51,466 nucleotides of DNA from a virus (Duplodnaviria > Heunggongvirae > Uroviricota > Caudoviricetes): IMG/VR virus record IMGVR_UViG_2585427971_000010; one strand, written 5' to 3'. A program made the position numbers and the translations under genes. Position 1 is the first letter of the stretch. Every line of letters begins with the position of its first letter. Below, piece after piece: positions 5,638 through 27,441 of the stretch. The notes under the pieces are model-generated. The model was not told the origin of the DNA. It made no database searches and was given only the letters and a program-made list of their open reading frames with translations.

Positions 5638-5639
5638 GA

Positions 5640-5990: not shown

Positions 5991-6120
5991 GTGTGTCTCC
6001 TTATCTGGTGGAGACAGCATCACAAATACAGGGCGCGAAGGATTTTAAAGCGCGTTAAGAGAGCCGGGGATACGGGATGTGCAGGATAAACGATGAATTA
6101 TTCACAGAGGAGAATACGAT

Positions 6121-6597
6121 ATGACGCACACACTGAATCCGGTCATCACTGTCACTGTGTCCGGTCCTGTGGGCAGCGGTAAAAGTTACGTACTGGCGCG
6201 GATAGAAGAGATGGTGAAACAGGAACTCGGAAACAGCGTCATTGTCGATGCTGCTGACGTGGAGAATGAGCGCCGTATGAATGGCGAAGATCTGACGACC
6301 TGGCAGAAGCCACGGGGTGGCACAGTGATCAGGCTGGAGGAATACACGGGACAGGGCCTGTTGTCATACGGCGAGGAGCGTATCTGTCGGACGAATGAGC
6401 TGCTGGATGTTATATGCCCCACGGGCCGGCAACCCTGGATACTGCCCGATGCACTGCATGCCACCATTGCGGCACTGATGACAGTTTACGATCAGGAGCT
6501 GCTCATGAAGGAGTTACGTAAACTCACCGGTCAGCCAACAGAATGTTGTTCGTCTCCGAAGTACGGCAAACAGGAAAACGCCCCGGATAATCCTTAA
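6121..6597 (+). CDS. small P-loop NTPase-like protein, function unknown
   Basis: Walker A motif GPVGSGKS near N-terminus, then hydrophobic strand ending in acidic residues (VIVDAAD); good SD (AGGAGA); opposite strand to flanking operons. Confidence 0.55.
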   Translation: MTHTLNPVITVTVSGPVGSGKSYVLARIEEMVKQELGNSVIVDAADVENERRMNGEDLTTWQKPRGGTVIRLEEYTGQGLLSYGEERICRTNELLDVICPTGRQPWILPDALHATIAALMTVYDQELLMKELRKLTGQPTECCSSPKYGKQENAPDNP

Positions 6598-6634
6598 GAT
6601 ACCTCCTGAACAGAAACAGCCCTGAAGGGCTGCA

Positions 6635-7225
6635 CTAAAAAAAGAAGTGTATTATTGCCCAAACAGCTATAACGATGATTCCCAGCCCAAGAGCCGATTC
6701 TAACTTATCTTTGGCAGTCATTTTTACTGTTGTAGCGGGCGCAGGTAAGTCTTGCTGCTGTGGATTTTCTGTTAGTTGTTTACGAGAAGAAACATCGCCC
6801 CTGTTAGTTTGCTTCATGTTGATTACAGATGCGTTATGGGCATTATCAGCAGCAATTGACTGAAGTTTTACAAAAGTTTTTGAATCTGTTTTAGCCAGAA
6901 GTAACCTATTTCCCGTAAACATTGCCTTAAAAGTGATAGTTTTTTTCGTCTTGTCCGCCGCACCAAGCAAACCTCCAATGACCAACCCTGCACCACCAAA
7001 GATTAATCCACCAAGCAAACCTGCGCCTGCCGCCTTACCTATACGGCTTTCCTCTTCACTATCCGCAAGTTCAATCGATAAAAGCTCTTCTTTCAGATTT
7101 AATACAATATTTTCAGGAAAGCCTTGTTTTGGTTTTTTGGCAAACACGATGGTACCGAACCCCATGCTTGCCCACCCTTTAGGAAAACTTCCTGCGATAA
7201 CCTGAATCCCTGCCATGTTCATCAC
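6635..7225 (-). CDS. membrane protein with glycine-zipper TM segment and C-terminal TM helix
   Basis: AAGAGLLGGLIFGGAGLVIGGLLGAA segment; C-terminal LGLGIIVIAVWAIIHFFF; last gene of the repressor operon. Confidence 0.5.
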   Translation of the reverse strand: MMNMAGIQVIAGSFPKGWASMGFGTIVFAKKPKQGFPENIVLNLKEELLSIELADSEEESRIGKAAGAGLLGGLIFGGAGLVIGGLLGAADKTKKTITFKAMFTGNRLLLAKTDSKTFVKLQSIAADNAHNASVINMKQTNRGDVSSRKQLTENPQQQDLPAPATTVKMTAKDKLESALGLGIIVIAVWAIIHFFF

Positions 7226-7306
7226 CTTTTACATTAAAATTTCAGAACGCAGCATGATGCCGCCTTTGTCTTTTTTCTGATCCCATGGTAATTCAGCTGT
7301 TATTTT

Positions 7307-8293
7307 CTATTTAAGAATAAAACGGTATTTACTGTCAGGAGTGCTTTGCTGATCAAGTAGCAGTGAACGACATGGAGCAGTCAAAACCCGAGCATAACTA
7401 CCATCAGGGCTTATGTTAATGTAACAAACCTTGCCCTTAACACTATAATTTTCGGGGACGGATGCCTTTGCTGATACAGTAAATTTAAGGGTATGCCAGC
7501 CCGTTTTTTGCTTGTAGCTTGAAACCGAATGGAAATCATCTGAGTACTTATTTAACCCTGGAAACATGCTGCGCAGTGCGGGGATGGAATCTTCTATTAT
7601 TTTATCGTTGGTTTTAATGTTAAAAACGCTGGTTTCAGTAGAAGCTACTGCTTTGGCATTTCCCCATTTACCAGCGAACACAATCATTCCCACGAAAAAT
7701 ATTGCTACAAGAACTAACACTCCCCCCAACACTACTACATGAGGCTTCCGGCTTCTGGTTGGTACAGTTGCGACTGATTTTGCACCGCTTTCCGATGGAG
7801 GTGATAGAGTTTTACTCTCATCACGAATATTCAGCAGATCATCAAAATAACCAAACACAGCCTGCAACTGCTCTTTGTCTAGGCCTTTAAGATGGGTTGT
7901 ACCGAAATGCTTCAGACAGTATCTGTCACGGTCAAGACGATACCCAGGGTCAGTAAGCGCCATTATTTTGCTGACCAGAAGATTACAGTCCTTCATATTC
8001 TGGATCTGTTGTGCATATCTCTGAAGGATCTCAACCGCACCATGATAATCAGCCGCAGTCATTTCATTAACTGTTTTGGTATTAAGTTTCGTGTGGATCG
8101 TCATCCATAGCTCGCGCTTACTTTCCCCCAGATCAACCAATTCATCCATCAATCTGTGTAAATCGCGTTTTTGCAGCAACGAAATTGGTTGCTGGGCCGA
8201 AGGAAGTATGTCAGCAGAATAGTTATGAATGGTAACATCACCGCTGACAACGTTACCCACATCCCCGTTAACTGTTTGCTTCTCTTTACTCAT
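7307..8293 (-). CDS. bitopic membrane protein (cytoplasmic N-domain, one TM helix, periplasmic C-domain)
   Basis: 328 aa; TM HVVVLGGVLVLVAIFFVGMIVFAG; start overlaps repressor stop (ATGA); N-terminus shares a GDV-GNV-G-VTI motif with the repressor C-terminus. Confidence 0.55.
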   Translation of the reverse strand: MSKEKQTVNGDVGNVVSGDVTIHNYSADILPSAQQPISLLQKRDLHRLMDELVDLGESKRELWMTIHTKLNTKTVNEMTAADYHGAVEILQRYAQQIQNMKDCNLLVSKIMALTDPGYRLDRDRYCLKHFGTTHLKGLDKEQLQAVFGYFDDLLNIRDESKTLSPPSESGAKSVATVPTRSRKPHVVVLGGVLVLVAIFFVGMIVFAGKWGNAKAVASTETSVFNIKTNDKIIEDSIPALRSMFPGLNKYSDDFHSVSSYKQKTGWHTLKFTVSAKASVPENYSVKGKVCYINISPDGSYARVLTAPCRSLLLDQQSTPDSKYRFILK

Positions 8294-8751
8294 CTTCTCT
8301 TGGTATTTTTGTTCATTATTCCACCTGTTCCTATGGTTACGTTACCTTTGATAACATTCCCCAGAACATCTCCATGAATAACCTGTTCCGCCCGTTCTCT
8401 GGAGGAGCCAGTAGTCAAGGCCGACAAAACTGAACCTTTGACCTGTAATGGTGCCTGCCGGTAGTGCTGCAGTAACTCCATTTCATCACGTGATAAAGTT
8501 ATACCTGATGACTCCCCGGTAAGAATGAACTGTACATTGGCCCCAATTCTTGCAAAGGCTGCAAGTAACTCACCTCCGGGAACAGCAACCCCTCGTTCAT
8601 ATTTCCCCCACATTTCTCTTGAAACGCCACAAAGGGCTGCTACTTCAGCCTGCTTGAGTGATAACCGCGAACGCTCAGCTTTGAACCGCGACGCGCAAAG
8701 AGAATCAAAATTCACATAAACCTCATTGACAATGAGAACAATAGTTCTCAT
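8290..8751 (-). CDS. XRE-family HTH transcriptional repressor (candidate Mu c-like immunity repressor)
   Basis: HTH segment LSLKQAEVAALCGVSREMWGKYERG; divergent from the small regulator at 8802 as in Mu c/ner. Confidence 0.7.
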   Translation of the reverse strand: MRTIVLIVNEVYVNFDSLCASRFKAERSRLSLKQAEVAALCGVSREMWGKYERGVAVPGGELLAAFARIGANVQFILTGESSGITLSRDEMELLQHYRQAPLQVKGSVLSALTTGSSRERAEQVIHGDVLGNVIKGNVTIGTGGIMNKNTKRR

Positions 8752-8801
8752 AATCTATCACATATAAAACAAACATCATTGCATCAACAAAGGAGACAAC
8801 A
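8752..8801. promoter_or_regulatory. divergent promoter/operator region between repressor and Cro/Ner-like gene
   Basis: Short AT-rich intergenic region between divergently transcribed regulators. Inferred from arrangement only. Confidence 0.35.
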
Positions 8802-8990
8802 ATGACTTCCGAACAAGTTAAAAATCTCTTCCGTCAGCGTGGTATCACGTTTACCCGCTGGGCCGAAGAACACGGCTACAGCCGCAATGAGGTCTATCGT
8901 GTTCTCAATGGACAGACCAAAGCTCGTTACGGCAAAGCCCATGAAATTGCCGTAAAACTGGGATTAAAACCCACGTCAAATGCGGCATAA
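8802..8990 (+). CDS. small Cro/Ner-like DNA-binding regulator
   Basis: 62 aa, HTH-like (FTRWAEEHGYSRNEVYRVLNG); strong SD (AAGGAGA); positional equivalent of Mu ner. Confidence 0.6.
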   Translation: MTSEQVKNLFRQRGITFTRWAEEHGYSRNEVYRVLNGQTKARYGKAHEIAVKLGLKPTSNAA

Positions 8991-9042
8991 ATTTTCCACA
9001 TATGCAACAGGTTATCACATATTGCAAAAATGGAAATGTGAC

Positions 9043-9351
9043 ATGAGTAAAGTAAATATTTCCAGTTCTGGGACCCGCATCCTACGTGTACTCAAAGCTC
9101 TACGCGGTCATGCTCTGAACGGTGTTTCTAACGGTGAACTGGCATCAGCCCTGGGGGAGTCCCCGGCGAATATCAATCGAGCACTTAATACCCTTATTGA
9201 AGAGGGACTGGCCATGAAATTAGAGAACGGACGTTTCGCACCGGGAATCCAGTTACTACAGATCGCCATGGCTCACAGTCACGAGATGGCGCGTGCACAG
9301 GATCGTATTAACGAAATCAACCAACGAGTTATTTCAGGTAGTCGTTTGTAA
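9043..9351 (+). CDS. putative winged-helix DNA-binding protein
   Basis: Internal Met of ORF 8980..9351; HTH-like GVSNGELASALGESPANINRALNTLIEEGL. Start uncertain. Confidence 0.4.
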   Translation: MSKVNISSSGTRILRVLKALRGHALNGVSNGELASALGESPANINRALNTLIEEGLAMKLENGRFAPGIQLLQIAMAHSHEMARAQDRINEINQRVISGSRL

Positions 9352-9361
9352 GGAGTAATCA

Positions 9362-10276
9362 ATGGGACGCACCAAATCACCCGTTAACACTGAACTGAAT
9401 GTTGAGGTTCCGCTGTCAGATAACATCAATGTCAATTTGAACGCTATGACACAGCATCGCATGGAAATTATGCAGCAGTTTGGTGATGGACTGCCTTATG
9501 AACGTGATCGCATTGTTCACGAAGCACGTTTTTATATGGCGCAGAGTGCTGAATCTATGCTGGAAGCGGGTAAGCGGCTGATCATCTTAAAAGAAAATGA
9601 GCCACACGGTGATTTTACAAACATTTTAGAAAATGAACTCGGACTTGCACCACAAGTTGCTCGCCGCATGATGCAAGCCAGTATGAAGTTTTTGGGAGAA
9701 GGTGATGAGCCAACAAAACGCTCAACGTTGAGCGTTTTGGGGAAAGCCAAACTGTACGACCTGATGGTTCTGGATAATGAAGAACTTGATGAATTGGCCG
9801 ACGGCGGCACAGTTGCCGGCCTGACGCTTGACGACGTTGATCGCATGTCAGTACGTGAATTGCGTCAGGCCCTGCGCGAAGCGCGCGAAACCAACGCAGC
9901 ACAACAGCGCGTACTCGCCGACAAAAATGAAAAAATAGATTCACTCTCCACCAGACTGGAGAAGAAATCCCGTATTCAGCCGCCTGAGCCTGATGAGGAG
10001 GTTAAGAAGCTGCGGGCGGAAGTAACAGCATTAGCGGTTGAGGCGGAATCTGCTATCGCCGTCCGACTGTCCAGCGCTTTTGAGACGCTGTGCGCATATT
10101 GTGCTGAAAACATGATTGATACCCCCAGAGACTTCATGGCAGGCCTGGTCTGTCAACTGGAAAGCACAGCGCGTAGCCTGCGCTCCACATTTGACCTGCC
10201 GGACGAGCCAACAGGCAATGCAGCGCCTTCATGGCTGACTGAGCCGACGCCACAGATTAACGGGCTGGAGGCATAA
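9362..10276 (+). CDS. hypothetical protein (Mu-like early region)
   Basis: 304-aa ORF with strong SD (AAGGAG); acidic, coiled-coil-rich. Confidence 0.55.
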   Translation: MGRTKSPVNTELNVEVPLSDNINVNLNAMTQHRMEIMQQFGDGLPYERDRIVHEARFYMAQSAESMLEAGKRLIILKENEPHGDFTNILENELGLAPQVARRMMQASMKFLGEGDEPTKRSTLSVLGKAKLYDLMVLDNEELDELADGGTVAGLTLDDVDRMSVRELRQALREARETNAAQQRVLADKNEKIDSLSTRLEKKSRIQPPEPDEEVKKLRAEVTALAVEAESAIAVRLSSAFETLCAYCAENMIDTPRDFMAGLVCQLESTARSLRSTFDLPDEPTGNAAPSWLTEPTPQINGLEA

Positions 10277-10279
10277 CCA

Positions 10280-12049
10280 ATGAATGCTGCCCTGACTGAA
10301 CGACTGGTTTATGTCGCCCGCGCGGCACGTGACGCGGGGCATGGTAAACGCGGTGCAATATACGACGCTGCCTGTGCTGAACTTGGCATGTCCCGCGCCA
10401 CTCTGCTGCGCAGGCTGAAGGAGGTCTCTGTGACTGATAAACGCAAAAAACGCGCCGATGCCGGGCGCAGCGCCCTGACCCGCGACGAAGCCGCGCTGAT
10501 ATCTGCCACACTGCGTGAGGCCACCCGCAAGAACGGTAAGCGTCTCTATTCCATCGCAGATGCAGTGGAAACCCTGCGGGCTAACGGCTTTATCACCGCA
10601 GGCAGAACAGATGAAACCACCAGTGAGTTTTTCCCGTTGTCTGAAGATGCCATCAGCCGTGCTCTGCGTAACTATGGCCTGCACCCGGAACAACTGGATG
10701 CCCCTGCACCACATACCGAAGTGGCCAGTCTGCATCCCAATCATGTCTGGCAGATTGACGCCTCACTCTGCACGCTTTACTACCTGAGCAATGGACATAA
10801 AGGGCTGCAGGTGATGGACAGCGCGAAGTTCTACAAGAACAAGCCCGCTAACCTTGCCCGTATCGCCAGTGACCGCGTGTGGAGTTACGAGATTACCGAC
10901 CATGCCAGCGGCTGGATTTACGTTGAGTATGTGACGGGCGCGGAATCAGGTGAGAACCTGTGTTCTGTGCTTATCAACGCCATGCAGGAGCGTGGCGGCG
11001 CAGACGTGCTGCACGGCGTGCCGAAAATACTCTATCTCGACCCCGGCTCGGCAAACACCGCGGGTATGACGAAAAACATGTGCCGCTCACTGGGCATCGA
11101 CCTGATAGCGCACAAGCCGCATAACGCCCGCGCCACCGGACAGGTGGAAAAGGCGCGTGACATTATCGAACGCAAGCTGGAGCCGGGTCTGAAGTTCCGG
11201 CCGGTTCACAGTCTGGAAGAACTCAACGCGCTGGCCGCGAAATGGCGCAGCCACTTTAACGCCACGGCTGTTCACAGCCGCCACGGTAAAACCCGCACGG
11301 ATATCTGGCTGAAGATTACTGCTGAGCAGCTGAAAAAAGCGCCTTCCGTTGAGGTATGTCGTGAACTGGCTGTGGCGGCACCAGAACTCCGCAAAGTCAC
11401 GCCAAAACTTCGTGTCTCGTTCCGGGGCACTGAATTTGACGTATCAACGGTACCGGGCGTACTGGTTGGTGAAAAACTGATGATTACCCGTAACCCATGG
11501 CGCAGCGATGTGGCACAGGTGGTTCTGACCGGTGAGGACGGCCACGAGACGTTCTTCCTGGTCGAAGAGGTCAGAAAGAACGAGTTTGGCTTTGCTGAAG
11601 GCGCGGCGGTATTTGGCGAAAGTTACAAAGCCCTGCCGGAAACCCCGGCACAGATGGCGGCAAAAGAAACCGAAGCGCTGGTTACCGGTACAGACAACGC
11701 CGCAGATGCAGCCGCCGCACGCAAGGCGAAGGCGCTGCCGTTCGGCGGGCGGCTTGACCCGTATAAACATATCGACGACACCACACTTCCGGCCTATATG
11801 CCGAAGCGTGGTCAGGCCTCTGACGTACGCGGGCCGCGCACTGAACAACGTCCCATGACTCATGTGGAGGCCGCGAAAGCCCTGCGCGATAAGTTCAGCG
11901 CCGACGGCCTTACCTGGACGCCGGAACATTACCGCCAGTTAACGGCACAGTACCCGGACGGCGTACCGGAAGCCGCACTGGATGAAGTCATGGCCACGCT
12001 GACCACACCGGCCCGCAGCAGTGTTATCAGCATTGTTAACGGCAACTGA
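10280..12049 (+). CDS. DDE transposase (Mu A-like, integrase-core/rve fold)
   Basis: 589 aa; catalytic-core-like segments (HVWQIDASL…, …ITDHASGWIYVEY…, …LYLDPGSANTAG…); followed by AAA+ partner as in MuA/MuB. Confidence 0.8.
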   Translation: MNAALTERLVYVARAARDAGHGKRGAIYDAACAELGMSRATLLRRLKEVSVTDKRKKRADAGRSALTRDEAALISATLREATRKNGKRLYSIADAVETLRANGFITAGRTDETTSEFFPLSEDAISRALRNYGLHPEQLDAPAPHTEVASLHPNHVWQIDASLCTLYYLSNGHKGLQVMDSAKFYKNKPANLARIASDRVWSYEITDHASGWIYVEYVTGAESGENLCSVLINAMQERGGADVLHGVPKILYLDPGSANTAGMTKNMCRSLGIDLIAHKPHNARATGQVEKARDIIERKLEPGLKFRPVHSLEELNALAAKWRSHFNATAVHSRHGKTRTDIWLKITAEQLKKAPSVEVCRELAVAAPELRKVTPKLRVSFRGTEFDVSTVPGVLVGEKLMITRNPWRSDVAQVVLTGEDGHETFFLVEEVRKNEFGFAEGAAVFGESYKALPETPAQMAAKETEALVTGTDNAADAAAARKAKALPFGGRLDPYKHIDDTTLPAYMPKRGQASDVRGPRTEQRPMTHVEAAKALRDKFSADGLTWTPEHYRQLTAQYPDGVPEAALDEVMATLTTPARSSVISIVNGN

Positions 12050-12059
12050 GGAGGGAAAC

Positions 12060-13226
12060 ATGCTGGTACTGAAGCAGCAACTGAAAGAGGCCCGTATTCC
12101 ACAGGCGGTGGTGGCGAGAGCTGTCGATGTTTCTGAGGCCACGCTGGCCCAGATTGTGAATCATAACGCGTGGCCCCGCACCAGCCCCGGAGAAGTGCGC
12201 CGGCGTCTTGCGTCCTGGCTGGAAAGTCAGGGGATTGATACAACGAAGAGTTTTGATGCTGTACAGGGCGCGGCCACGCCCCGTACAGCGGGTACCACAG
12301 ATAAAACGAGCCTCAGTGAGGAAGAGAATATGTTACTCAAAAAACAGGTGTTATTTCCAGCAACCAAAAAAGCGTTTGGTCTTTTCCGTGACCCGTTCGC
12401 CGACGAAGCCATGCAGGGTTCTGATGATGTGTTCACCACCCCGGACATTCGCTACGTGCGTGAGGCGCTGTACCAGACAGCCCGTCATGGTGGGTTTATG
12501 GCCGTCATCGGTGAGTCCGGTGCGGGTAAATCCACGCTGCGCCGCGACCTGACTGAACGTATCAACCGCGAGAATGCGCCGGTAATTGTTATCGAGCCAT
12601 ACATCATCGCTATGGAAGACAACGATGTGAAAGGGAAAACCCTGAAGGCAGCAGCTATTGCCGAAGCCATTATCAGTACCATCGCACCACTGGAAAGCAT
12701 CAGACGCAGTCAGGACGCCCGTTTTCGCCAGTTGCATCGCGTCCTGAAAGACAGCAGCCAGGCGGGGTTCAGCCACGTTCTGGTGATTGAGGAGGCCCAC
12801 AGTCTGCCCATTCCGACACTGAAACACCTCAAACGCTTTTTTGAGCTGGAGTCCGGTTTCAAAAAACTGCTGTCCATCGTGCTGATTGGCCAGCCGGAAC
12901 TGGCGACAAAACTGTCTGAACGCAATATGGAAGTCCGTGAAGTCGTTCAGCGCTGTGAGGTGGTCGAACTTCTGCCTCTGGACAATAACCTTGAAGAATT
13001 TCTGACGTTCAAACTGCAACGGGCCGGTAAACAGCTGACGGACATTATGGACGCCGGTGCAGTGGATGCCATACGTGCCCGCCTGAGCAATCCGGGAAGT
13101 CACCGTAAAAATATGGTCAGCCTGCTGTATCCGCTGGCCGTCAGTAACCTGGTAATAGCCGCCATGAATCTGGCCGCTGAAATCGGGGTTCCACAGGTCA
13201 ACGCTGACGTTGTCAAAGGGGTTTAA
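12060..13226 (+). CDS. transposition ATPase (Mu B-like AAA+ protein)
   Basis: Walker A GESGAGKST, Walker B-like HVLVIEEAH; N-terminal HTH; GGAGGG SD before internal ATG at 12060. Confidence 0.75.
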   Translation: MLVLKQQLKEARIPQAVVARAVDVSEATLAQIVNHNAWPRTSPGEVRRRLASWLESQGIDTTKSFDAVQGAATPRTAGTTDKTSLSEEENMLLKKQVLFPATKKAFGLFRDPFADEAMQGSDDVFTTPDIRYVREALYQTARHGGFMAVIGESGAGKSTLRRDLTERINRENAPVIVIEPYIIAMEDNDVKGKTLKAAAIAEAIISTIAPLESIRRSQDARFRQLHRVLKDSSQAGFSHVLVIEEAHSLPIPTLKHLKRFFELESGFKKLLSIVLIGQPELATKLSERNMEVREVVQRCEVVELLPLDNNLEEFLTFKLQRAGKQLTDIMDAGAVDAIRARLSNPGSHRKNMVSLLYPLAVSNLVIAAMNLAAEIGVPQVNADVVKGV

Positions 13227-13228
13227 TA

Positions 13229-13498
13229 ATGAAATCCACCACAGGTATCAACCAGCAAATCAGCAAAGTGCAGTCAGCCATTATGGCGCTTAAGGCGACG
13301 AACACGGATGTACAGAGCATCACCATCAGGGGTAACAAACCTGTCATCCGCGTTTCCCGGAGTGCGCATTGCATGCGCATGCTTGAGCAGGGAAAGGCCT
13401 GTTATCTGTATACCGGACATGACCACAGGGGATATTTCCGTCAGGGCGTTTTCGAACTGCACGGCTGTCGCGTCGTGTGGCCGGAATCTTTGTGGTAA
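13229..13498 (+). CDS. hypothetical small protein (Mu-like semi-essential region)
   Basis: 89-aa ORF immediately after B with SD. Confidence 0.45.
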   Translation: MKSTTGINQQISKVQSAIMALKATNTDVQSITIRGNKPVIRVSRSAHCMRMLEQGKACYLYTGHDHRGYFRQGVFELHGCRVVWPESLW

Positions 13499-13525
13499 TC
13501 AGCACAACTGGAGAAATCATAAAAA

Positions 13526-14056
13526 ATGGCAAAAAGTACAAAAGGTGCAAAACGTATCAAGGCCGCAGCAGCACTCTGGGTGCCGGGGACACGTGAAGAG
13601 GTCATTGAGGGAATCAGACTACTCGGTGACGCACAACGTGAACTGGTCAGGGCTGAAACAGAAATGAATGACGCCATTGGCGATATCACCGCACGTTATG
13701 CCCCGCTCACCGAGAGCCTGAAAAAACGCATGGCCGAACTGCAGTCCGGTATTCAGACATGGTGTGAGGCACACCGTGATGAACTGACCGGCAACGGGAA
13801 GGTGAAGTTCGCTAACCTCACCACCGGCGAGGTGCAGTGACGAAACCGTCCGCCATCAGTCAGTATCCGTGGGGCGGATAATGTTATTGAATTACTGAGA
13901 CGTCTGGGGCTTGAGCGCTTTATTCGTGTAAAAGAGGAAATAAATAAAGACGCTATCCTGAATGAAAAAGAGGCCGTGAAAAATATTCCCGGTATTTCCA
14001 TTAAAAGCGACATTGAGGATTTTTCAATAATTCCTTTTGAGCAGGATGTGCAGTAA
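13526..14056 (+). pseudogene. gam: Gam-like host-nuclease inhibitor (Mu Gam homologue) interrupted by in-frame TGA at 13838-13840
   Basis: N-terminal 104 aa recalls Mu Gam (MAKSTKGAKRIKAAAALWVPGTREEV…); the same frame continues after the stop (RNRPPSVSIRGADNVIELLRRLGLERFIRVKEEINKDAIL…SIKSDIEDFSIIPFEQ) matching the Gam C-terminus; the stop sits where Mu has Trp. Confidence 0.6.
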
Positions 14057-14153
14057 ACACACCACGTTAATTATTTAATAAAAACATTTTCTTTTTTATT
14101 CCGACGTCAGCGCCGCGGGCTTCTGCACGCCGGAAACAGAGGAGAATTAAATC

Positions 14154-14348
14154 ATGATATTTAAATGTATTCAGTGCGAGAGGGATATAACAGCCCTGCG
14201 TTTTCACAGCGCCATCGCCGTGATGTCCGGTAAATACCACATCCCTGCGGTACGCGTCACCCTGGTCTGCCCGTACTGCAGCCAGCATTTTTCGGCAGAC
14301 GTGCCCGTCATGGAATTCTCCCGCCCTGACAGGGAGGACTCGCAATGA
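14154..14348 (+). CDS. small zinc-ribbon-like protein
   Basis: 64 aa with CxxC…CxxC (CIQCER … CPYCSQ); SD GAGGAG. Confidence 0.45.
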   Translation: MIFKCIQCERDITALRFHSAIAVMSGKYHIPAVRVTLVCPYCSQHFSADVPVMEFSRPDREDSQ

Positions 14349-14617
14349 TTACCCCACAGGAAGCACGACAGCGCACCCGAACCCTTGTTGAACACTATGT
14401 CAACGAGTGTGAATGCCGCGACCTCACCGATGTGAAGCACGTCCTGACGGCGCTAATCAGCATGACCGCTCAAGCCATTGTGGCGACCAACGGAAAGGCG
14501 GCTGCCCTGCAGGTACTGGTGAACACACTAACCCACACGGCAGCGCATGAGGTGCCGTACCGGATGGAAACCACTGCAGAAGGCGGCCTGCACATCACCG
14601 TCAGCCGGAAGCACTGA
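14345..14617 (+). CDS. hypothetical protein
   Basis: 90-aa ORF, SD GGGAGG, start overlaps upstream stop. Confidence 0.45.
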   Translation: MITPQEARQRTRTLVEHYVNECECRDLTDVKHVLTALISMTAQAIVATNGKAAALQVLVNTLTHTAAHEVPYRMETTAEGGLHITVSRKH

Positions 14618-14626
14618 GGGCGCGGC

Positions 14627-14923
14627 ATGACACGGAACACCATACTCACCCGCACCGCCCTCTACCGTCTGGCCCTGCAGCGTTTCGGGCCGGACGCACA
14701 GGCCCTGAAACTGACAGAAGAGGCCGCTGAACTGGCGGCCAGTGCTGCCCGCAATCTGAACGGACAGGGCAGCGAAAGCGACCTCGCGGCAGAGCTGGCA
14801 GACGTGGAAATCATGACAGAGCAATTGCGCCTTCAGGGGATGGACCGGCTGATTGACTTCCACAAACAGAAAAAACTGGAACGTCTGGCTGCACGACTGG
14901 GCGTGATTTACACGAACGAGTAA
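14627..14923 (+). CDS. MazG-like nucleotide pyrophosphohydrolase domain protein
   Basis: 98 aa with EExxE and E..D motifs (LTEEAAELAASAAR; ELADVEIM) typical of all-alpha NTP pyrophosphohydrolases. Confidence 0.5.
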   Translation: MTRNTILTRTALYRLALQRFGPDAQALKLTEEAAELAASAARNLNGQGSESDLAAELADVEIMTEQLRLQGMDRLIDFHKQKKLERLAARLGVIYTNE

Positions 14924-14937
14924 CCGGGAGGCATTCA

Positions 14938-15153
14938 ATGGCTGACATACTCAGGGAAATCACCGCATGGATACTGATTCTTACTGGCCTGGCGACATGC
15001 CTCAGTGCGGGGGCAGCCCTGGCTGCCCTGCTGATGCACATAACAACACAGTGGTTATGGGAAAAGCTTAAAGCAGCATACAGCCTGAAAGAGCTGTCCG
15101 ACGCTGTCCGGGCATGGAAACGGCAGAAAAATACAGGAGATACAGAACAATGA
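14938..15153 (+). CDS. small membrane protein
   Basis: 71 aa, hydrophobic helix (ITAWILILTGLATCLSAGAALAALLM). Confidence 0.4.
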   Translation: MADILREITAWILILTGLATCLSAGAALAALLMHITTQWLWEKLKAAYSLKELSDAVRAWKRQKNTGDTEQ

Positions 15154-15833
15154 CAGACCAGAATAAACACATTGAGAAACTGAAAAAGTTGCTGGCGCTG
15201 GCCGCATCCGGCAACCCGCACGAGGCCGCTCTGGCACTGCGCCGAGCCCGTAAACTGATGGATGTTCACGGCATCACACATTCCGACATTGCTATGAGTG
15301 ATATTGATGAAACCATCAGTCACTACTGGCCGACAGGCAGTCTCCGTCCACCGCGCTACATGCTGGGCCTGATGAACATCATCCGCGAGGTATTTGGTGT
15401 TAACTCCATCATTCACCCCGGCACGCATCCGTCTGTGGGGTTCTACGGCAACCGGGAACGTGCGGCACTGGCTGCATACACCTGGGAAGTGCTGGCCCGT
15501 CAGCTGAAAAAGGCGCGTCAGCAGTATATCAGTGCACAGAACAAAAGAATAAAAACCGCCACCCGCACCAGCCGTGGAGACCAGTTTGCCGAAGGCTGGG
15601 TGCTGGCCGTTATCAGTGAAATACAGTCCTTTGCCCTGACCGATGATGAGCGTGAACTGATGCAGCAGTGGCTGGAACATAAATACCCGCAGACGCAAAC
15701 CACCAGGGCGCGTAAACCGGGAAGAAGCCGCAATGGCGACGCCTCGCGCTATGCGGGGTTTCGTGAAGGGCAGAACGTCAGACTGCACCGCCCGGTCAGT
15801 GGGCAGGAACAACAGAAACTGGAGGCCAGATGA
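15150..15833 (+). CDS. hypothetical protein conserved in Mu-like early regions
   Basis: Internal Met with GGAG SD (MTDQNKHIEKLKKLLALAASGNPHEAALALRRARKLM…). Confidence 0.5.
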   Translation: MTDQNKHIEKLKKLLALAASGNPHEAALALRRARKLMDVHGITHSDIAMSDIDETISHYWPTGSLRPPRYMLGLMNIIREVFGVNSIIHPGTHPSVGFYGNRERAALAAYTWEVLARQLKKARQQYISAQNKRIKTATRTSRGDQFAEGWVLAVISEIQSFALTDDERELMQQWLEHKYPQTQTTRARKPGRSRNGDASRYAGFREGQNVRLHRPVSGQEQQKLEAR

Positions 15834-16060
15834 TTACGCTATCAGGTAAAAGCCGGAAATTAAAAGCCTGCCGAATATCTGCCAGATACCTTTTTGCCCG
15901 CGCCTTTTTTAAGAACGTCAGGCCGGGGATCACAATTGGTGTTATTGCCGGACGCGAACAGGTTGAAAAATACATGTCAGGTGCATGGTGGAATAACGAC
16001 CCTGTCATTGCTGCCCGTAATATTCATATCGAATGGGGAGGTATTCAGAATGACTACTGA
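15830..16060 (+). CDS. hypothetical protein
   Basis: 76-aa ORF with GGAGG SD, start overlaps upstream stop. Confidence 0.4.
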   Translation: MITLSGKSRKLKACRISARYLFARAFFKNVRPGITIGVIAGREQVEKYMSGAWWNNDPVIAARNIHIEWGGIQNDY

Positions 16061-16256
16061 AACCATTGTCTGTTTTCTTTTCTGGTATATGTACGCAGGA
16101 TCATGCAGCGCAAGACTTCATCGTTCCCTGGGCTATGGCAGGCACTACGACACCGCGCATTACATCCTGTACATGACCGCCGTCATGTTGTTCTGGCCAG
16201 TCACCCTGCCAGCTGCAACCGACATTGTTGCCGACAGACTGAAAAAAAGGAGATGA
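16050..16256 (+). CDS. small hydrophobic protein
   Basis: 68 aa from internal Met (MTTETIVCFLFWYMY…), SD GGGGAGG. Confidence 0.35.
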   Translation: MTTETIVCFLFWYMYAGSCSARLHRSLGYGRHYDTAHYILYMTAVMLFWPVTLPAATDIVADRLKKRR

Positions 16257-16257
16257 T

Positions 16258-16707
16258 ATGCAGAAAAAACGCCTGATACAGCTTATCCATATTGCCCGTA
16301 ATGAACTGGGTATGGATGAAGACACCTACCGCCAGATGTTACAGGGGCTGACCGGTAAAGCCTCAACCAAAGGAATGGATACCACACAACTAAACTGCGT
16401 GCTGGAATCCATGAAAAAGAAAGGCTTTCGCGTTAAACCAGCCAGAAAAGCCAGCTCCGGTTTACCGCTGGATAACCATCCGCAGTCCAGGAAAATTCGT
16501 GCGCTATGGCTTGAAATGGCTGCTGCCGGCATTGTTCGTGACCGTTCAGAAAATGCATTAGCGAGGTGGATCAAGCGGGAAACGGGCATCAGCGCCCTGC
16601 GCTGGCTCAGTACTGAACAGGCAAGCAGTGTTATTGAGAAACTGAAGAAGTGGCAGCGCAGAGCTGCGGGAGTCAAACATGAGCGACCTGAATCAGTTTC
16701 GAAGTAA
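16258..16707 (+). CDS. gemA: GemA-like regulatory protein (Mu gp16 family)
   Basis: N-terminal LIQLIHIARNELGMDEDTYRQML… pattern typical of GemA; sits immediately upstream of the Mor-family gene. Confidence 0.6.
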   Translation: MQKKRLIQLIHIARNELGMDEDTYRQMLQGLTGKASTKGMDTTQLNCVLESMKKKGFRVKPARKASSGLPLDNHPQSRKIRALWLEMAAAGIVRDRSENALARWIKRETGISALRWLSTEQASSVIEKLKKWQRRAAGVKHERPESVSK

Positions 16708-17068
16708 GGGGCCGGAACTCCTGGTGGAACTGGCACAGCATACCTCTGAGACCGTTCGCGAGATTATTGATATTGAGCCCGAAGTTGCCGACCAGATTGG
16801 TCAGGCCGTCGCGAACCGAATGATGCAGGTCTGGGGCGGGCAAAACGTTTATTTCCCGATGGGCATGGTATGGAAGGTCAGTCAGCGCGACCGGGAAATC
16901 TTCAGGGAGTTTAACGGACGCAACCACCACGAACTGGCCCGCAAATTTGGTGTTTCGCTTCAGTGGGTCTACAGCGTGGTTAAGCGGGTAAGAAAAGAAG
17001 AACTGGATCGGATGCAGGGCAAGCTATTTGCTGATGAACCCGATGCAGATACGGAGAAAAAAGAGTAA
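16679..17068 (+). CDS. mor: Mor/C-family transcriptional activator
   Basis: 129 aa with conserved Mor-family segments (…WGGQNVYFPMG…, …FREFNGRNHHELARKFGVSLQWVYSVVKRVR…). Confidence 0.7.
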   Translation: MSDLNQFRSKGPELLVELAQHTSETVREIIDIEPEVADQIGQAVANRMMQVWGGQNVYFPMGMVWKVSQRDREIFREFNGRNHHELARKFGVSLQWVYSVVKRVRKEELDRMQGKLFADEPDADTEKKE

Positions 17069-17097
17069 TATCTGCAATCAGGCTGGCGCGAGTTCTG

Positions 17098-17154
<57 letters not shown>

Positions 17155-17155
17155 A

Positions 17156-17232
<77 letters not shown>

Positions 17233-22016: not shown

Positions 22017-22046
22017 CAGGTTGTTTGGGGCGGAAATACTCTATTT

Positions 22047-22112
22047 GCGCTTAAAAAGGTATTTGACCACGACCAGCACGAGACCGAATACCTCTGTCAA
22101 AGTACCGCCCAT
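22047..22112. repeat. 66-bp direct repeat, copy A (orphan copy of the 3' end of gene 25463..26068)
   Basis: About 93% identical to 25468..25533; on the minus strand encodes MGGTLTEVFGLVLVVVKYLF*. Confidence 0.7.
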
Positions 22113-22142
22113 ATAAAACAGTTACATATGCACTTGATGACT

Positions 22143-23114: not shown

Positions 23115-24301
23115 GAATTCCCTTTAGAGTAAGGATTGGTTTTTAAGACGCGGTCTGTAATCAGTCCCGAGAGCTACAGTAAACAACGCTGAGCACTGAA
23201 CGCATCACAGGTAAGGTAAAAGGTGATATCGGCAAAGGCTGTGAAACCTTTAATTCAACAGATGGGAACGGTATGCGCAGGATCCTGTAACGACGCTCCC
23301 AAAACCGGAAACCTGTAAGGCATGTTTTCGCTGCTGAACTTAATATACGAACCTGCACTATCATGAACATATTTTATATCGTTATACCCCGAGTGATTGT
23401 GCCCGGCAATGGATAGTGTCCTGGAGGAACTATTTCTACTGTAAAAGGTAGATATTTAATTTCAGTTTTGAATTATTCCCTGCTGTTAATAACAATGGCT
23501 GTATATGGCACCGAGTAGGCATTTTTTCGCTTACTGAAGGGCAGCTGTGAGCGAGGAACAGACTTTCCCTACTTCGTTGAGAGTACACCTAGTACAATCA
23601 AGGCTAAATGATAAAAATATACAAAATATCATATTTATGATATATATAATGGCATTAATCTTATTCTTGGATTACGTTGAAAGGGTAATATTATATTTGT
23701 GTAACATAGTTTAGATAACAATGCCGTTATGGGGGGGGAAAGACATTTCAACATATTAGCTTTGTATCTAACGCTCATGTAGATCTCGATTTTGAACTTA
23801 AAGAACAATTATTTTTTAGAGAGCAAGGTATTTTTGGGGAACAAAAACATAAAGTAATGGAGAGAGGAGAATGTATCAAAAAATCATCGATTTAATTTAG
23901 ATTGTCCGTATAGTTGGGGGTAAGTCGAATCGCTGGGCTACATGGAATATTGTGTCAAGTAAAAATATATTTCAATCTTGCAATAACCGATTGTTGAAAA
24001 TAATGTCAAATCTTAATGGTGAATGGGGAGAATATAATAAACATGAGTCGATATTATGCAAATGGATTTAAATATTTTATACCCGAAGACATAGGGTTTC
24101 GAGAGTTCGATGAGACTACTTTGAATGCTTTCGAATTTGCTGGCTAAAACATATAGGTTATATCTTACATCTGTTTGTAATGGAGCGTAGATGCGACAAG
24201 CTACACCATAATAATCATATTATGATATATTGTTAAGTTGTTATGGCATTAAATAAAATTATGTCATTTTGTTAACCAAGCAAGAATCAAAGGACTTTTA
24301 G

Positions 24302-25000
24302 ATGGGTACGGCATTAATTTCAAGCTTTATTAGTGGTGCAATAGCTATAATCTCTATTGCTATATCTACTTATAATCAGAATAGAATAAACAAGCTCAAT
24401 GAATCACTGGATGTAAGGAGAAAACATCAGTACTATATTGAACCGTTAATTCGCTCAGCTTCAGACTTACAAAGCCGTATTTATAATATATTAGAATTGG
24501 GGTTCATTGAAGAGTTTTATCATAATGGGAATAAGCGCCAACAAGATTATGTTATCAACAATACTGTTTTTCTTTTTTCCCAGTTTTTTGCATGGACAGA
24601 AGCTGCCCGCATAGACATTCAATACCTTAGCCTAGAAAAAAATAAAAAAATGAGGGAGTTTATTAGATTACAGAACAATATTAACTCATTAATCCAAACA
24701 GACGTCTTTGGTCAGTATTTTATGTTTTTCATAGGAGAGCAGAGAGCTATTGCAGAAAAGATGCTGATATCAACAGATACTGGATTTGATTGCATAGGTT
24801 ACGGCAGTTTCACAAAGGAAAATTGCTTTATCAATGAGCCATTTTTTTTAGATTTAAACAATGAAGTGATAAATATGACAAGAGATATCGGAATTTATAA
24901 AGAAAGGCTAATCAGAATACAGCACGCGTTAATCGATTTAATTAATTTTCTTGATCCTGGCATGATTCGATTTGACGGAAAAAAATATGGAAAAATATAA
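24302..25000 (+). CDS. low-GC membrane-anchored protein of unknown function (single N-terminal TM helix)
   Basis: 232 aa; N-terminal helix ALISSFISGAIAIISIAISTY; strongly AT-rich codon usage inside an AT-rich island. Confidence 0.55.
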   Translation: MGTALISSFISGAIAIISIAISTYNQNRINKLNESLDVRRKHQYYIEPLIRSASDLQSRIYNILELGFIEEFYHNGNKRQQDYVINNTVFLFSQFFAWTEAARIDIQYLSLEKNKKMREFIRLQNNINSLIQTDVFGQYFMFFIGEQRAIAEKMLISTDTGFDCIGYGSFTKENCFINEPFFLDLNNEVINMTRDIGIYKERLIRIQHALIDLINFLDPGMIRFDGKKYGKI

Positions 25001-25184
25001 CCCAGATGATTCGTATCAAGGTAAGTTGCTATATGTATCAATTTAATTATGGTTGGGTGAAATTTATGTTAATAGTAGCGGAGGGTTAGTTAAAATATGC
25101 TCTCAGTGATTTTTGGATAGTTCTTTTATTTATCATTGAAAGTAAATATGTATAGCTTCAAGATTTACAAGTGAATCTGTTTAT

Positions 25185-25218
25185 TGACAGTCCGCTTATG
25201 GCACAGAGCGGACTGTCA
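25185..25218. other. perfect 12-bp inverted repeat hairpin
   Basis: TGACAGTCCGCT-(10 nt)-AGCGGACTGTCA, followed by T-rich sequence; downstream of gene 24302..25000. Confidence 0.4.
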
Positions 25219-25462
25219 TATTAAATTTGGCTCCACGCCATAGATGTGTCAGCTCATATCTTATCTAATACACACAATAACTTTCTCATTCTTGGAGAAT
25301 TATTTTTTTAAGGGTAGGTGTTGACGTTAGAGCAAAAGAATGGTGATTTTTTTGATGTGTATTACGTTGGAACTGATGGGAATAACTATCTGTTTTCAAC
25401 GCACTGCTAATTTATCAAGGCCCTTTGATCAGGGCCTTCGAAAGACTGTTGGACCGAGAGAG

Positions 25463-26068
25463 TTACTTGCGTTTAAAAAGGTATTTTGTCACGACCAGCA
25501 CGAGGCCGAATACCTCTGTCAAAGTACCGCCCATGTACAACTGTAGTGTTAAATCCTCAAATTCCAGCTTACCTGCGCCGTCGGCAATAAATACACCATT
25601 CATTATCAGAAGTTGGAAAGCAAGGATAATCAGGAACCATTTCCCGTATCGTTTTTTTAGAGCGATTTCTGCTTCAAAATCTTTGTTGTTGAGTTGTTTG
25701 CGCTCATGCTCGGTATCAAGTGAATTCACCTGTTTCACAGATGTGAACTCGGTCAAGATTTTACTCTCAGTACGGGTGACTTGTTGAGAGGGTGTAGCAG
25801 TTGGAATTCTTTTGCTAGACGCAGCTACAGCCATTTTGCGAGCTTCGGCAGCTCTTTTTCTGGCTATTCCGCGAATACGGACAGCCGTTTTTTTGGGGGC
25901 GTGCGAAACCTTTGGCTGAGGTGAAGCTTCGTCAGGAGACTGAACCGGAGTTTCATCGTCCTCCGGCTCAACCTCTTCTGCTAACTGACGGTGTAGGTTG
26001 AGGGAATCCTTCAGTCTGCGTGCTACTTCCTGTTTGAAACGGCTGTTAAAATCGTCATCCGATGGCAT
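25463..26068 (-). CDS. membrane-anchored protein: charged disordered N-terminal region plus two C-terminal TM helices
   Basis: 201 aa; K/R/E/P-rich N-terminal two-thirds; C-terminal WFLIILAFQLLIMNGVFIA and LTEVFGLVLVVTKYLF; 9-nt gap after the peptidase gene. Confidence 0.55.
   Translation of the reverse strand: MPSDDDFNSRFKQEVARRLKDSLNLHRQLAEEVEPEDDETPVQSPDEASPQPKVSHAPKKTAVRIRGIARKRAAEARKMAVAASSKRIPTATPSQQVTRTESKILTEFTSVKQVNSLDTEHERKQLNNKDFEAEIALKKRYGKWFLIILAFQLLIMNGVFIADGAGKLEFEDLTLQLYMGGTLTEVFGLVLVVTKYLFKRK
25468..25533. repeat. 66-bp direct repeat, copy B (encodes C-terminal TM helix of gene 25463..26068)
   Basis: Matches 22047..22112 with 4-5 mismatches. Confidence 0.7.
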
Positions 26069-26077
26069 TTTAAAGCG

Positions 26078-26566
26078 TTACCCCAACCTCAAGTTCTTTA
26101 AACGATAAGTCATCGCATCGTCAGATACGCCAAAATAATGCGCCATTATATAACTTGGTTGACCGTCAGCGTGCAGTTTTCTGACCTCATCTACCGGCAT
26201 CAGAAGTTCTGCTGCGAACTTGTTTGCAAAAATTTCATCAGGATGCGTTCCGGCGCTTGCGGTTTCGCCACGTAAATCAACGTACTCATATTCATCGCTA
26301 TGCGATGCTTGCCGGGCGATGTAATGCCCCAACTCATGCCCACATGAAAAACGTTGACGAACTTTGTTGTCATCACTGTTTAGAAAGATCGCTGGATCTT
26401 GATCTTTTTGTTTAATCAGTGCGCCAGAAACTTTCCCAGGAAGATCGGTAATAAAAACATCTAATCCCATGTCGTGAGCAATTTTCGCTGGATCAACAGG
26501 GAAACCACGCCCGCACCAGAACGTGTCCAGCACTCGCCGGGCGTGCTCTCTTGGGTTGGTAGCCAT
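26078..26566 (-). CDS. ImmA/IrrE-family zinc metallopeptidase
   Basis: HEXXH motif (HELGHY) in an ImmA/IrrE-like context; 162 aa, no HTH domain of its own. Confidence 0.7.
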   Translation of the reverse strand: MATNPREHARRVLDTFWCGRGFPVDPAKIAHDMGLDVFITDLPGKVSGALIKQKDQDPAIFLNSDDNKVRQRFSCGHELGHYIARQASHSDEYEYVDLRGETASAGTHPDEIFANKFAAELLMPVDEVRKLHADGQPSYIMAHYFGVSDDAMTYRLKNLRLG

Positions 26567-26621
26567 AGCTCCTCCAGTTACTGCATTACGATTATTGGTT
26601 GAAATATAGACAGCATGTTCC

Positions 26622-26664
26622 GTACCACATTCCTGTAAAAGTGCAAATTCTGCACTTCTGGTAC
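26622..26664. promoter_or_regulatory. nested palindrome upstream of the peptidase operon; candidate operator
   Basis: GTACCA…AGTGCA-aattc-TGCACT…TGGTAC about 60-100 nt upstream of the peptidase start. Confidence 0.35.
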
Positions 26665-26964
26665 GATATTAACTGTTAGTAGTAAAGTCTTCCAGATAAA
26701 TCACTTTAAAATCTTGTGAATTGCTTGCTTTTTACGCTGTATTGTGGATGGTTCAATGTTTCCAGTAAAAACATACATGATAATCATGAGTTTAGTGTTT
26801 TTTTAGGCGTCTATATGTTTCTGGAAAATACAGGTCTAACCTGATCTTATCGTTGAGATTTTTTGTACTCAGTATGCGTGAACGATTCGACCAGGTGACT
26901 GTGTACGTGAAGAAGACCGCCCTTAATATTTTAAATGTGCAACCCCTCAGAAGAGGGGCTACTC

Positions 26965-27198
26965 TCACTTCTGCAGTATCTCGCCAATACCTGCCAGATT
27001 CTCGTCCATCTTGTCACCGTTTTCGATAAGGATGGAGTTGAGCCGATTCAGTTGCATAGCAATTTCAAGTTTGATTAAGGTATCCACCGATACACCAGTT
27101 TCTTTTGCTAACTTAGTAAGAGCCGCAGCTCGATTGGCTAAATTAAAATCATCGAACTCATAACGACTTCTGCACGGCTGGTTGCCTAACGTACCCAT
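26965..27198 (-). CDS. small protein, possible DNA-binding regulator
   Basis: 77 aa; helix-turn-helix-like segment (AALTKLAKETGVSVDTLIKLEI); about 400 nt upstream of the peptidase gene on the same strand; hairpin CCCCTC-agaa-GAGGGG after its stop. Confidence 0.4.
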   Translation of the reverse strand: MGTLGNQPCRSRYEFDDFNLANRAAALTKLAKETGVSVDTLIKLEIAMQLNRLNSILIENGDKMDENLAGIGEILQK

Positions 27199-27441
27199 AG
27201 TGATTCCTCATGATATAAAGACCCAACAATATAAATTACCAGGCACATCATAAGATAGGGTTCCAGCCCATATTTTCAAATATTTGCAAGTATCACCGTT
27301 CAGTCTAAAAAGTTGGATGATGATTTAACGAGCCATAACAAAACCCTGCCTCGGAGGTTTTTTCTTTTTTATAGAACTCAGCGGCGTGAAAACGAATAAT
27401 AAATTGTGCAAATAGTGCAGTTTTTATTATTCGAGGTAATT

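Follow-up and report, generated by a model that had tools for sequence, protein, structure and literature searches.

What does a stand-alone peptidase of the M78 (ImmA/IrrE) type do when the gene beside it encodes a membrane protein instead of a repressor? The question is raised by the Caudoviricetes record IMGVR_UViG_2585427971_000010, a stretch of 51,466 nucleotides (nt) that is referred to here in its entirety as the window, in which a 162-amino acid (aa) peptidase and a 201-aa membrane protein are encoded one after the other on the minus strand. Between positions 17231 and 47400 the window is 99.98% identical to the Escherichia coli prophage L001, and we refer to the two genes as the E. 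coli pair. Based on the homology and conservation data presented below, we propose that the pair is probably a toxin-antitoxin (TA) and anti-phage module carried as prophage cargo, that it belongs to the RosmerTA subtype known from Gordonia phage Kita, and that the membrane protein is a pore-forming toxin and the peptidase its antitoxin.

On the minus strand the gene order is a 77-aa open reading frame (ORF), a 398-nt non-coding stretch, the peptidase gene, a 9-nt spacer and the gene of the 201-aa protein (Table 1). The two ORFs of the pair share a reading frame, and the short spacer suggests co-transcription and coupled translation of both genes. The only Pfam match of the 162-aa protein is Peptidase_M78 (PF06114, E 7.7e-18), with the HELGH motif at residues 77-81, so that the HEXXH peptidase, and the partner gene 9 nt behind it, are as an earlier sequence-only reading of the window had described them. 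An alignment of peptidase orthologues paired with the membrane protein shows the HExxH, E-x-[FY]-A-[ND]-x-F and L-[LI]-M-P motifs to be invariant in all 17, and this strict conservation of catalytic residues suggests that proteolysis matters to the function of the pair. Among the PADLOC profiles the best match of the peptidase is capP (2.4e-25, profile positions 3-151 of 242), followed by the RmrA models, which are matched in their C-terminal peptidase halves only (best E 5.8e-12).

The architecture of the 201-aa protein, a disordered N-terminal region followed by two C-terminal transmembrane (TM) helices, had also been read from the sequence, and it is borne out by both structure prediction and hydropathy. 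The AlphaFold2 (AF2) model, built on a 20-sequence alignment, contains a helix at residues 4-32 (blocks 1-30, predicted local distance difference test (pLDDT) 65-85) and helices at 119-164 and 172-198, while residues 33-69 and 85-118 have pLDDT values below 50; residues ~33-118 presumably form a disordered, charged linker of about 85-90 aa. Hydrophobic maxima at ~144-166 and ~175-197 mark the two TM helices, with a juxtamembrane helix between the linker and TM1, and the charges are arranged as KKRYGK before TM1, an acidic loop between the helices and a C-terminal KRK. From the hydropathy, this charge distribution and the positive-inside rule we infer an N-in/C-in hairpin. Pfam, NCBIfam and PADLOC gave nothing meaningful for this protein, and PHROGs returned only phrog_5346, a family of unknown function. 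Nevertheless, the protein has a large family. A word-indexed search found 48 homologous clusters in the Enterobacterales, and a profile search of 1.84 billion cluster representatives (clustered at 50% identity) found 671 relatives at E<=1e-3, 182 of them reaching E<=1e-10; most of those listed are ~100-170 aa long. The enterobacterial members have in common a short helix at the N-terminus, a linker of variable length and sequence, and a nearly invariant C-terminal region of ~85 residues, in which TM2 carries the invariant E185 and G188 and a T..YLF motif. The free variation of the N-terminal tail is illustrated by the Microbulbifer homologue (L009), where it contains tandem ERARAEEAA repeats.

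The two genes are conserved together. In scans of species-representative genomes and of IMG/VR, full-length homologues of the 201-aa protein were encoded at 23 loci (10 genome and 13 viral). These belong to Escherichia, Leclercia, Buttiauxella, an uncultured proteobacterium, Thalassotalea, Gallibacterium, Microbulbifer, Desulfuromonas, a Rhodococcus metagenome-assembled genome and viral contigs, and in 23 of 23 the gene directly upstream, in the same orientation, encodes a peptidase orthologue (41-100% identity). The orthologous genes are a few nt apart or overlap, with stop and start codons overlapping in many of the viral loci. The flanks of the pair are unrelated from one locus to the next (pheT-ihfA, sucCD, an integrase, a Panacea-domain gene or phage genes), several loci are free of phage genes within the few kb inspected, and no helix-turn-helix (HTH) gene is conserved beside the pair across the 23 loci. 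Hence the pair is a conserved autonomous two-gene cassette, and both ORFs, judged from these sequences, are real genes and not chance ORFs. In the reverse test, 80 viral loci were picked by similarity to the peptidase and TM segments were called with a crude hydropathy window. A member of the 201-aa family lies immediately downstream in 39, and in 27 others the gene at that position codes for another small protein, one that has 1-4 hydrophobic segments and in most cases an acidic N-terminus, with frequent stop/start overlap; three loci are cut by a contig end and 11 have another gene or nothing obvious. A stand-alone peptidase is thus followed by a small membrane protein in 66 of the 77 evaluable viral loci. 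The co-occurrence check that the sequence-only reading had put forward accordingly finds the pair well outside this locus, with a membrane protein and not an XRE repressor as the partner. Likewise, the 201-aa protein has not emerged from our searches as a known structural or lysis protein, nor does the peptidase pair conservatively with a distal XRE repressor.

The identity of the cassette comes from the RosmerTA system of Gordonia phage Kita, in which RmrA_D25 (YP_009301393.1) consists of a Peptidase_M78 domain only and the membrane region of RmrT_D5 (YP_009301394.1) is C-terminal (Ernits et al. 2023, PNAS, PMC10440598). These are annotated as Kita gp32 and gp33, with the protease gene first, as in the E. 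coli pair, and a 4-nt overlap. A tblastn search of GenBank phages with the 201-aa protein itself gave no match. The link was found only through the Rhodococcus homologue (L011), for which tblastn gives 17 matching records, the gp33 proteins of Kita and 13 related Gordonia phages. Once the two pairs are compared directly by BLASTP, the peptidase is 43% identical to RmrA_D25 over 157 aa (E 1e-41), and residues 144-199 of the 201-aa protein are 32% identical to RmrT_D5 over 57 aa (E 1e-6), a region that spans both TM helices. Profile-profile alignment of the 201-aa family with RmrT_D5 by hhalign gives a probability of 90.5% and E 1.4e-6. A 17-sequence alignment shows a TM2 motif common to the toxins, with an invariant Glu and Gly and a T-x-Y/D-L-F ending, which in the Kita and E. 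coli proteins takes the form T/S-x-x-x-E-x-x-G-L/I-x-x-V/I-x-T-x-Y/D-L-F. The PADLOC pattern is also the same for both pairs, with capP and then the RmrA halves for the protease and nothing for the toxin; no RmrT model matches the 201-aa protein (E<=0.1), and the validated Kita RmrT is missed as well (E<=0.01).

The likeness extends to the design of the modules. In both, the first gene encodes a stand-alone, HTH-less M78 peptidase and the second, closely spaced gene a small protein that ends in a two-TM hairpin and whose N-terminus is acidic or disordered; both modules are temperate-phage cargo. They differ in the length of the peptidase (178 aa in Kita and 162 aa in E. coli) and of the toxin (119 and 201 aa, respectively) and in the host, an Actinomycetota phage as opposed to an Enterobacterales prophage. 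In the experiments of Ernits et al. the Kita RmrT alone halts growth and abolishes translation, transcription and replication in E. coli, and it rapidly depolarizes and permeabilizes E. coli membranes, with PanT_D11 as the depolarizing control; the pair defends against some myoviruses, namely coliphages Bas54 and Bas59 (PMC10440598). From this homology we infer toxicity, depolarization, neutralization and anti-phage activity for the E. coli pair. The sequence-only reading had favored a toxin-antitoxin or abortive-infection type of module, in agreement with the homology of both proteins to a validated pair. It had also held that no named defense family could be assigned, and here the homology search has overtaken it: the family is RosmerTA, in the Kita subtype (D25:D5 in NetFlax), which makes the locus less novel than that reading supposed.

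Several points weigh against this assignment and should be set beside it. The homology of the toxin to Kita RmrT spans ~57 residues of the TM hairpin, where compositional bias inflates similarity, so that the argument for toxin homology would lean on synteny with the clearly orthologous protease. The conserved N-terminal helix (~4-32) of the E. coli toxin was not found in the Kita protein, which also has no counterpart of its variable linker, and with these additions regulation may differ from that in Kita. As for the PADLOC models, RmrA is matched in the peptidase half only and RmrT not at all. A simple scan for the sigma-70 consensus gave no promoter in the stretch that separates the 77-aa ORF from the peptidase gene. 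In the Kita system itself, RmrA neutralizes RmrT only incompletely, and AlphaFold was unable to model the complex (pDockQ 0.05; PMC10440598). Finally, toxicity, neutralization and defense have been measured for the Kita pair only and extend to the E. coli pair by homology; the accessions of the E. coli pair were found neither in the text of the NetFlax supplement that was available to us nor in the literature searched. Even so, homology of the whole module is well supported, because the similarity of the toxins is joined by an orthologous protease, an identical gene order and intermediate sequences, and we conclude that the pair is, by sequence, a relative of RosmerTA of the Kita subtype.

We now put forward a hypothetical mechanism for the E. 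coli pair. In the inner membrane the 201-aa toxin would form an N-in/C-in hairpin of two helices and, if unrestrained, would oligomerize via its conserved polar TM2 (T-E-V-F-G-L-V-L-V-V-T-K-Y-L-F) into pores that depolarize and permeabilize the cell, so that phage replication is aborted. In uninfected cells the co-translated cytoplasmic M78 peptidase would keep the toxin harmless, its most likely target being the cytoplasmic N-terminal helix or the disordered tail of the toxin, and a phage cue, or loss of the protease supply, would free the toxin. The protease is more likely an antitoxin than an activator because the Kita toxin is toxic alone and is partly neutralized by its protease. That the tail is the site of cleavage is a reasonable guess, given that the layout of an N-terminal helix, a linker and an oligomerizing hairpin mirrors that of the M78 substrates CapH, DdrO and ImmR. 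Neutralization by proteolysis, and the identity of the trigger, are nonetheless speculative. A specific version, in which the HTH-less M78 enzyme is a proteolytic antitoxin that docks on the N-terminal helix and continuously clips the tail of the pore former until a phage inhibits or out-competes the protease, is a tentative idea to which we give about one chance in a few. The pair may possibly serve as a prophage-addiction module as well.

The alternative to which we give the most weight reverses the role of the protease, as the sequence-only reading did when it proposed a protease-gated effector. The 201-aa protein would be inert until a phage or DNA-damage cue led the peptidase to cut the linker and remove the N-terminal helix, freeing the pore-forming hairpin. 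Characterized M78 peptidases are indeed activated by a signal, and their cut falls in a linker or helix adjoining the oligomerization domain of their partner (CapH, DdrO, ImmR), the 201-aa protein has the same layout of N-terminal domain, linker and C-terminal oligomerizer, and in the enterobacterial proteins the N-terminal helix is conserved and the linker variable while the catalytic site of the peptidase is invariant. However, the Kita membrane protein is toxic by itself and its protease lowers that toxicity, many family members have ~30-50 residues before the TM region and thus little left to remove, and the 162-aa peptidase is without the GAF sensor domain of CapP and IrrE. What stands of the earlier proposal is a peptidase with a membrane effector in place of an immunity switch; activation by processing we consider unlikely. 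A lower probability still attaches to a membrane role without toxicity, in which the 201-aa protein acts in superinfection exclusion or in lysis timing like a holin or antiholin and the peptidase is a maturation factor or an addiction element with no part in defense. The two-TM N-in/C-in topology resembles that of class II holins and pinholins, the pair is prophage-borne and TA modules can be purely addiction modules, yet the pair lies outside the lysis cassette, whose own holins and endolysin follow Q at ~4 kb from the pair, and occurs also at chromosomal sites with no phage genes in the few kb inspected. Moreover, neither Pfam nor PHROGs gives a holin match for the 201-aa protein, and its Kita homologue confers measurable phage defense.

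Two further explanations give the peptidase a repressor as its target. Acting as an ImmA-type anti-repressor, it would trigger induction by cleaving an XRE repressor encoded elsewhere in the prophage, and the membrane protein would be an unrelated passenger or an accessory of lysis or exclusion. ImmA/ImmR is the founding function of the family, and the CI-like repressor of L001, an HTH_3 protein of 130 aa, has by Pfam HTH-type domains only and no self-cleaving peptidase domain, which means that some other induction mechanism is needed. Against this, the known ImmA/ImmR, IrrE/DdrO and CapP/CapH pairs are adjacent or linked, whereas the 23 loci have no conserved HTH neighbor; the conserved partner is a membrane protein, and several loci have no phage genes in the flanks inspected; prophages L025 and L026 share the backbone of NinB, 213-aa and 77-aa genes yet are without the peptidase; and the lambdoid immunity region is not present in the window. 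We regard this explanation as very improbable. Slightly lower again, at the bottom of our ranking, stands a CapP-like switch, in which the peptidase would cleave a CapH-like repressor and so control neighboring defense or cargo genes. It draws on the capP profile as the top PADLOC match, on CapP 7t5t as the only match of the peptidase among PDB sequences (E 1.7e-4, residues 79-152 of 291) and on the location in a cargo hotspot. The ranking of capP first does not discriminate, because the validated Kita RmrA gives the same pattern; no CapH-like HTH gene is adjacent to the peptidase, which is missing both the HTH-like linker and the GAF domain, and the neighboring genes differ in every locus. 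We therefore retain the RosmerTA module with the protease as antitoxin as the probable explanation.

Allelic variation among near-identical Escherichia copies bears on the toxin more than on the peptidase. In the close relatives L002, L016 and L017 the peptidase gene differs from that of the window by 2-4 synonymous and 0-1 non-synonymous changes. For the toxin gene the differences amount to 20 synonymous and 16-18 non-synonymous codons in L002 and L017, and to 3-7 synonymous and 1-5 non-synonymous codons in L014-L016. All changes in the toxin are confined to residues 36-171 (linker, juxtamembrane helix, TM1 and periplasmic loop), with none in the N-terminal helix or TM2, a clustering that suggests recombination and allele exchange or rapid turnover of the variable parts of the toxin. 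Five complete E. coli genomes have an IS1 in the toxin gene after codon ~170, with TM2 lost and the peptidase gene intact, and these alleles are compatible with toxin loss being tolerated while the antitoxin is intact. The protease-toxin pair occurs in 447-449 of 5426 complete E. coli genomes (~8%), including some strains labeled O25b:H4-ST131.

Table 1. Features of the window that bear on the peptidase-membrane protein pair and its setting.
Feature	Position	Strand	Basis or remark
rmrA-like gene, stand-alone M78 (ImmA/IrrE-type) zinc metallopeptidase, 162 aa	26078-26566	minus	Pfam and homology; presumed antitoxin
Intergenic spacer, 9 nt	26069-26077	minus	direct sequence reading
rmrT-like gene, 201-aa membrane protein	25463-26068	minus	AF2 model and homology; presumed pore-forming toxin
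Non-coding leader, 398 nt, upstream of peptidase gene	26567-26964	minus	sequence
Inner palindrome AAGTGCA-N5-TGCACTT, 19 nt	26639-26657		sequence
Outer arms CGTACCA/TGGTACG, 7 nt each	26659-26665 and 26621-26627		sequence
77-aa gene, phrog_5550	26965-27198	minus	prophage backbone beside the cargo slot, outside the module
rmrT-like 3'-end relic, 78 nt (last ~25 codons)	22042-22119	minus	90% DNA identity to 25464-25541
IS1-interrupted toxin allele	L116 1619-2882 (= window ~25550)		sequence comparison
HTH repressor-like gene (Mu-like region)	8290-8751	minus	authors' reading of ORF translation
Transposase A (Mu-like region)	10280-12049		authors' reading of ORF translation
B (Mu-like region)	12021-13226		authors' reading of ORF translation
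Gam-like (Mu-like region)	13526-13840		authors' reading of ORF translation
DUF2786 (Mu-like region)	15114-15833		RefSeq annotation
Mor-like (Mu-like region)	16679-17068		authors' reading of ORF translation

Upstream of the pair, the leader contains the nested palindrome that the sequence-only reading had placed at 26622-26664 in a putative promoter. The palindrome is there, within 1-2 nt of that interval; its tie to a promoter and to regulation is not borne out, with no sigma-70 promoter found and the element specific to this locus. Its outer arms lie asymmetrically about the inner palindrome, 1 nt away on one side and 11 nt on the other, and a palindrome with 7-nt arms is only weakly beyond chance (we estimate ~0.3 expected per 400 nt). 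It is kept only in near-identical Escherichia copies and does not occur upstream of the orthologues of other genera in an alignment of seven upstream regions, and on this ground we rejected it as a conserved operator. The leader has no Rfam match. The pattern TGCA-N5-TGCAC has five matches in the window against 0.6 expected, one of them at 27406-27419, before the divergent 213-aa gene. Immediately upstream of the ATG of that gene (27442) is an AT-rich inverted repeat with 18-nt arms (27393-27433), which contains TGCACTATTTGCAC, resembling the TGCAGAATTTGCAC core (26641-26655) of the palindrome upstream of the peptidase; an operator common to the peptidase leader and the 213-aa gene is possible from these sequences.

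The 77-aa ORF, which the sequence-only reading had singled out as an HTH-like regulator candidate, fared less well. The ORF itself is real (phrog_5550), but the protein has no Pfam match at E<=0.1 and hence no Pfam HTH, its single-sequence AF2 model is a two-helix hairpin (pLDDT 84.7), and the model has no fold match in the PDB at E<1 by Foldseek. Its gene is absent from L002 and from all non-Escherichia loci although the pair is present, and it is present in L025 and L026 without the pair. We rejected it as regulator of the module on these counts: no co-occurrence with the pair, no Pfam HTH, a predicted hairpin fold and no fold match in the PDB. In L016 a different, Cys/His-rich 92-aa ORF on the opposite strand (4657-4935, minus) replaces the 77-aa gene, and the pair is unchanged.

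The pair sits in the low-GC accessory stretch of the prophage (32-45% guanine plus cytosine, GC), in a slot bounded by replication genes and by the DUF1367, YbcO and Q genes of NinB/Q-type late regulation. The L001 prophage combines a lambdoid early region with contractile-tail genes and adjoins the tRNA-Gly/Cys/Leu cluster downstream of pgsA. Related prophages that share the NinB, 66-aa, 213-aa, 77-aa and LprI genes carry other cargo in the slot of the pair, and by this comparison of gene content the slot between the 77-aa and LprI genes behaves as a cargo and defense hotspot. In L025 the corresponding segment (3976-8008, window ~23200-26900) encodes a membrane protein of 242 aa, an NsnA-like protein with GmrSD_N/DUF262 (PADLOC 4.6e-41) and two further proteins of 182 and 204 aa. 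The relic of an rmrT-like 3' end lies just downstream of the LprI-family gene, 3.3 kb from the pair. Prophages L027-L033, which lack the pair, have the same relic behind their LprI gene, and this points to past cassette replacement at the slot. The lowest-GC kilobase of the window (32% GC) contains a 232-aa ORF (24302-25000, plus strand) that has a hydrophobic N-terminal segment, belongs to phrog_5606 (unknown function) and weakly matches the PADLOC reverse-transcriptase-associated membrane protein 'RTasTM' (E 1.8e-5); possibly it is a defense or cargo gene in its own right.

The window is colinear with L001 only from 17231 onward. Positions 1-17230 are a Mu-like early region, and the lambdoid immunity region of L001 is absent; the names of the Mu genes in Table 1 were read from translations, RefSeq being the source of the DUF2786 and gp16 labels only. 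None of 5426 complete E. coli genomes spans the junction at 17230/17231, and in strain 4/1-1 its two sides are ~1 Mb apart. The junction results from chimeric assembly or else from a rare rearrangement or insertion.

With this assignment, two genes annotated as 'hypothetical' or ImmA acquire a family name and a function that can be tested. It also exposes a blind spot in defense annotation, as PADLOC-DB v2.0.0 contains no model that matches either the E. coli toxin family or the validated Kita toxin. The breadth is considerable, with the 671 toxin clusters at 50% identity, and prophages commonly carry a gene for a small membrane protein right behind that of a stand-alone M78 peptidase. A native E. 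coli member makes it approachable, in a tractable host with its own phages, how a protease of a repressor-cleaving type neutralizes a membrane toxin and which phage cue releases the toxin. If the antitoxin does act by clipping and is inhibited by phage, this would be a mode of neutralization not established for any TA type, and the combination of a stand-alone ImmA and a small membrane protein would represent one large, mostly unannotated defense superfamily.

How, then, does the E. coli pair relate to the systems that are known? RosmerTA in the sense of Millman et al. 2022 is a two-gene, TA-type defense system with an antitoxin that contains a Zn-peptidase (M78/COG2856) and a toxin of unknown fold. 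The E. coli pair has the same two-gene, TA-type design, and its peptidase is matched by the RmrA hidden Markov models. These models cover ~360-400 positions, and the E. coli peptidase matches only ~145-290 of them (e.g. 166-266 of 363). According to the NetFlax authors the N-terminal part of RmrA often holds an HTH domain (PMC10440598); by Pfam and PADLOC, the N-terminal HTH of PADLOC-type RmrA is absent from the 162-aa peptidase. With ImmA/ImmR (ICEBs1, phage phi105), IrrE/DdrO (Deinococcus) and CapP/CapH the pair shares the M78 HExxH fold and a partner encoded next door. CapP is activated by single-stranded DNA and cuts CapH at F82/R83, and IrrE-DdrO and ImmA-ImmR are similar. The partners in those systems are soluble XRE-family repressors with a transcriptional output, whereas the conserved partner of the E. 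coli peptidase is a membrane protein; and where CapP and IrrE combine the M78 domain with an HTH-like linker and a GAF domain, the 162-aa peptidase has neither addition. In its membrane component the pair is like the small membrane-depolarizing toxins that hub antitoxins neutralize (PanT_D11/PanA, for example) and like class II holins and pinholins, all of which are small N-in/C-in hairpins that collapse the membrane potential. Pfam, PADLOC and PHROGs show no sequence relationship of the 201-aa protein to either group, and their neutralizing partner, a Panacea domain or an antiholin, differs from the M78 peptidase of the E. coli pair. GndRX (EMBO Rep 2025) was considered and set aside as irrelevant, since it concerns a RES-Xre system. 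Hence the closest relative is the Kita pair, a kind of system that was already known and was tested in 2023, and what is new here is an uncharacterized, widespread enterobacterial branch of it with a longer toxin.

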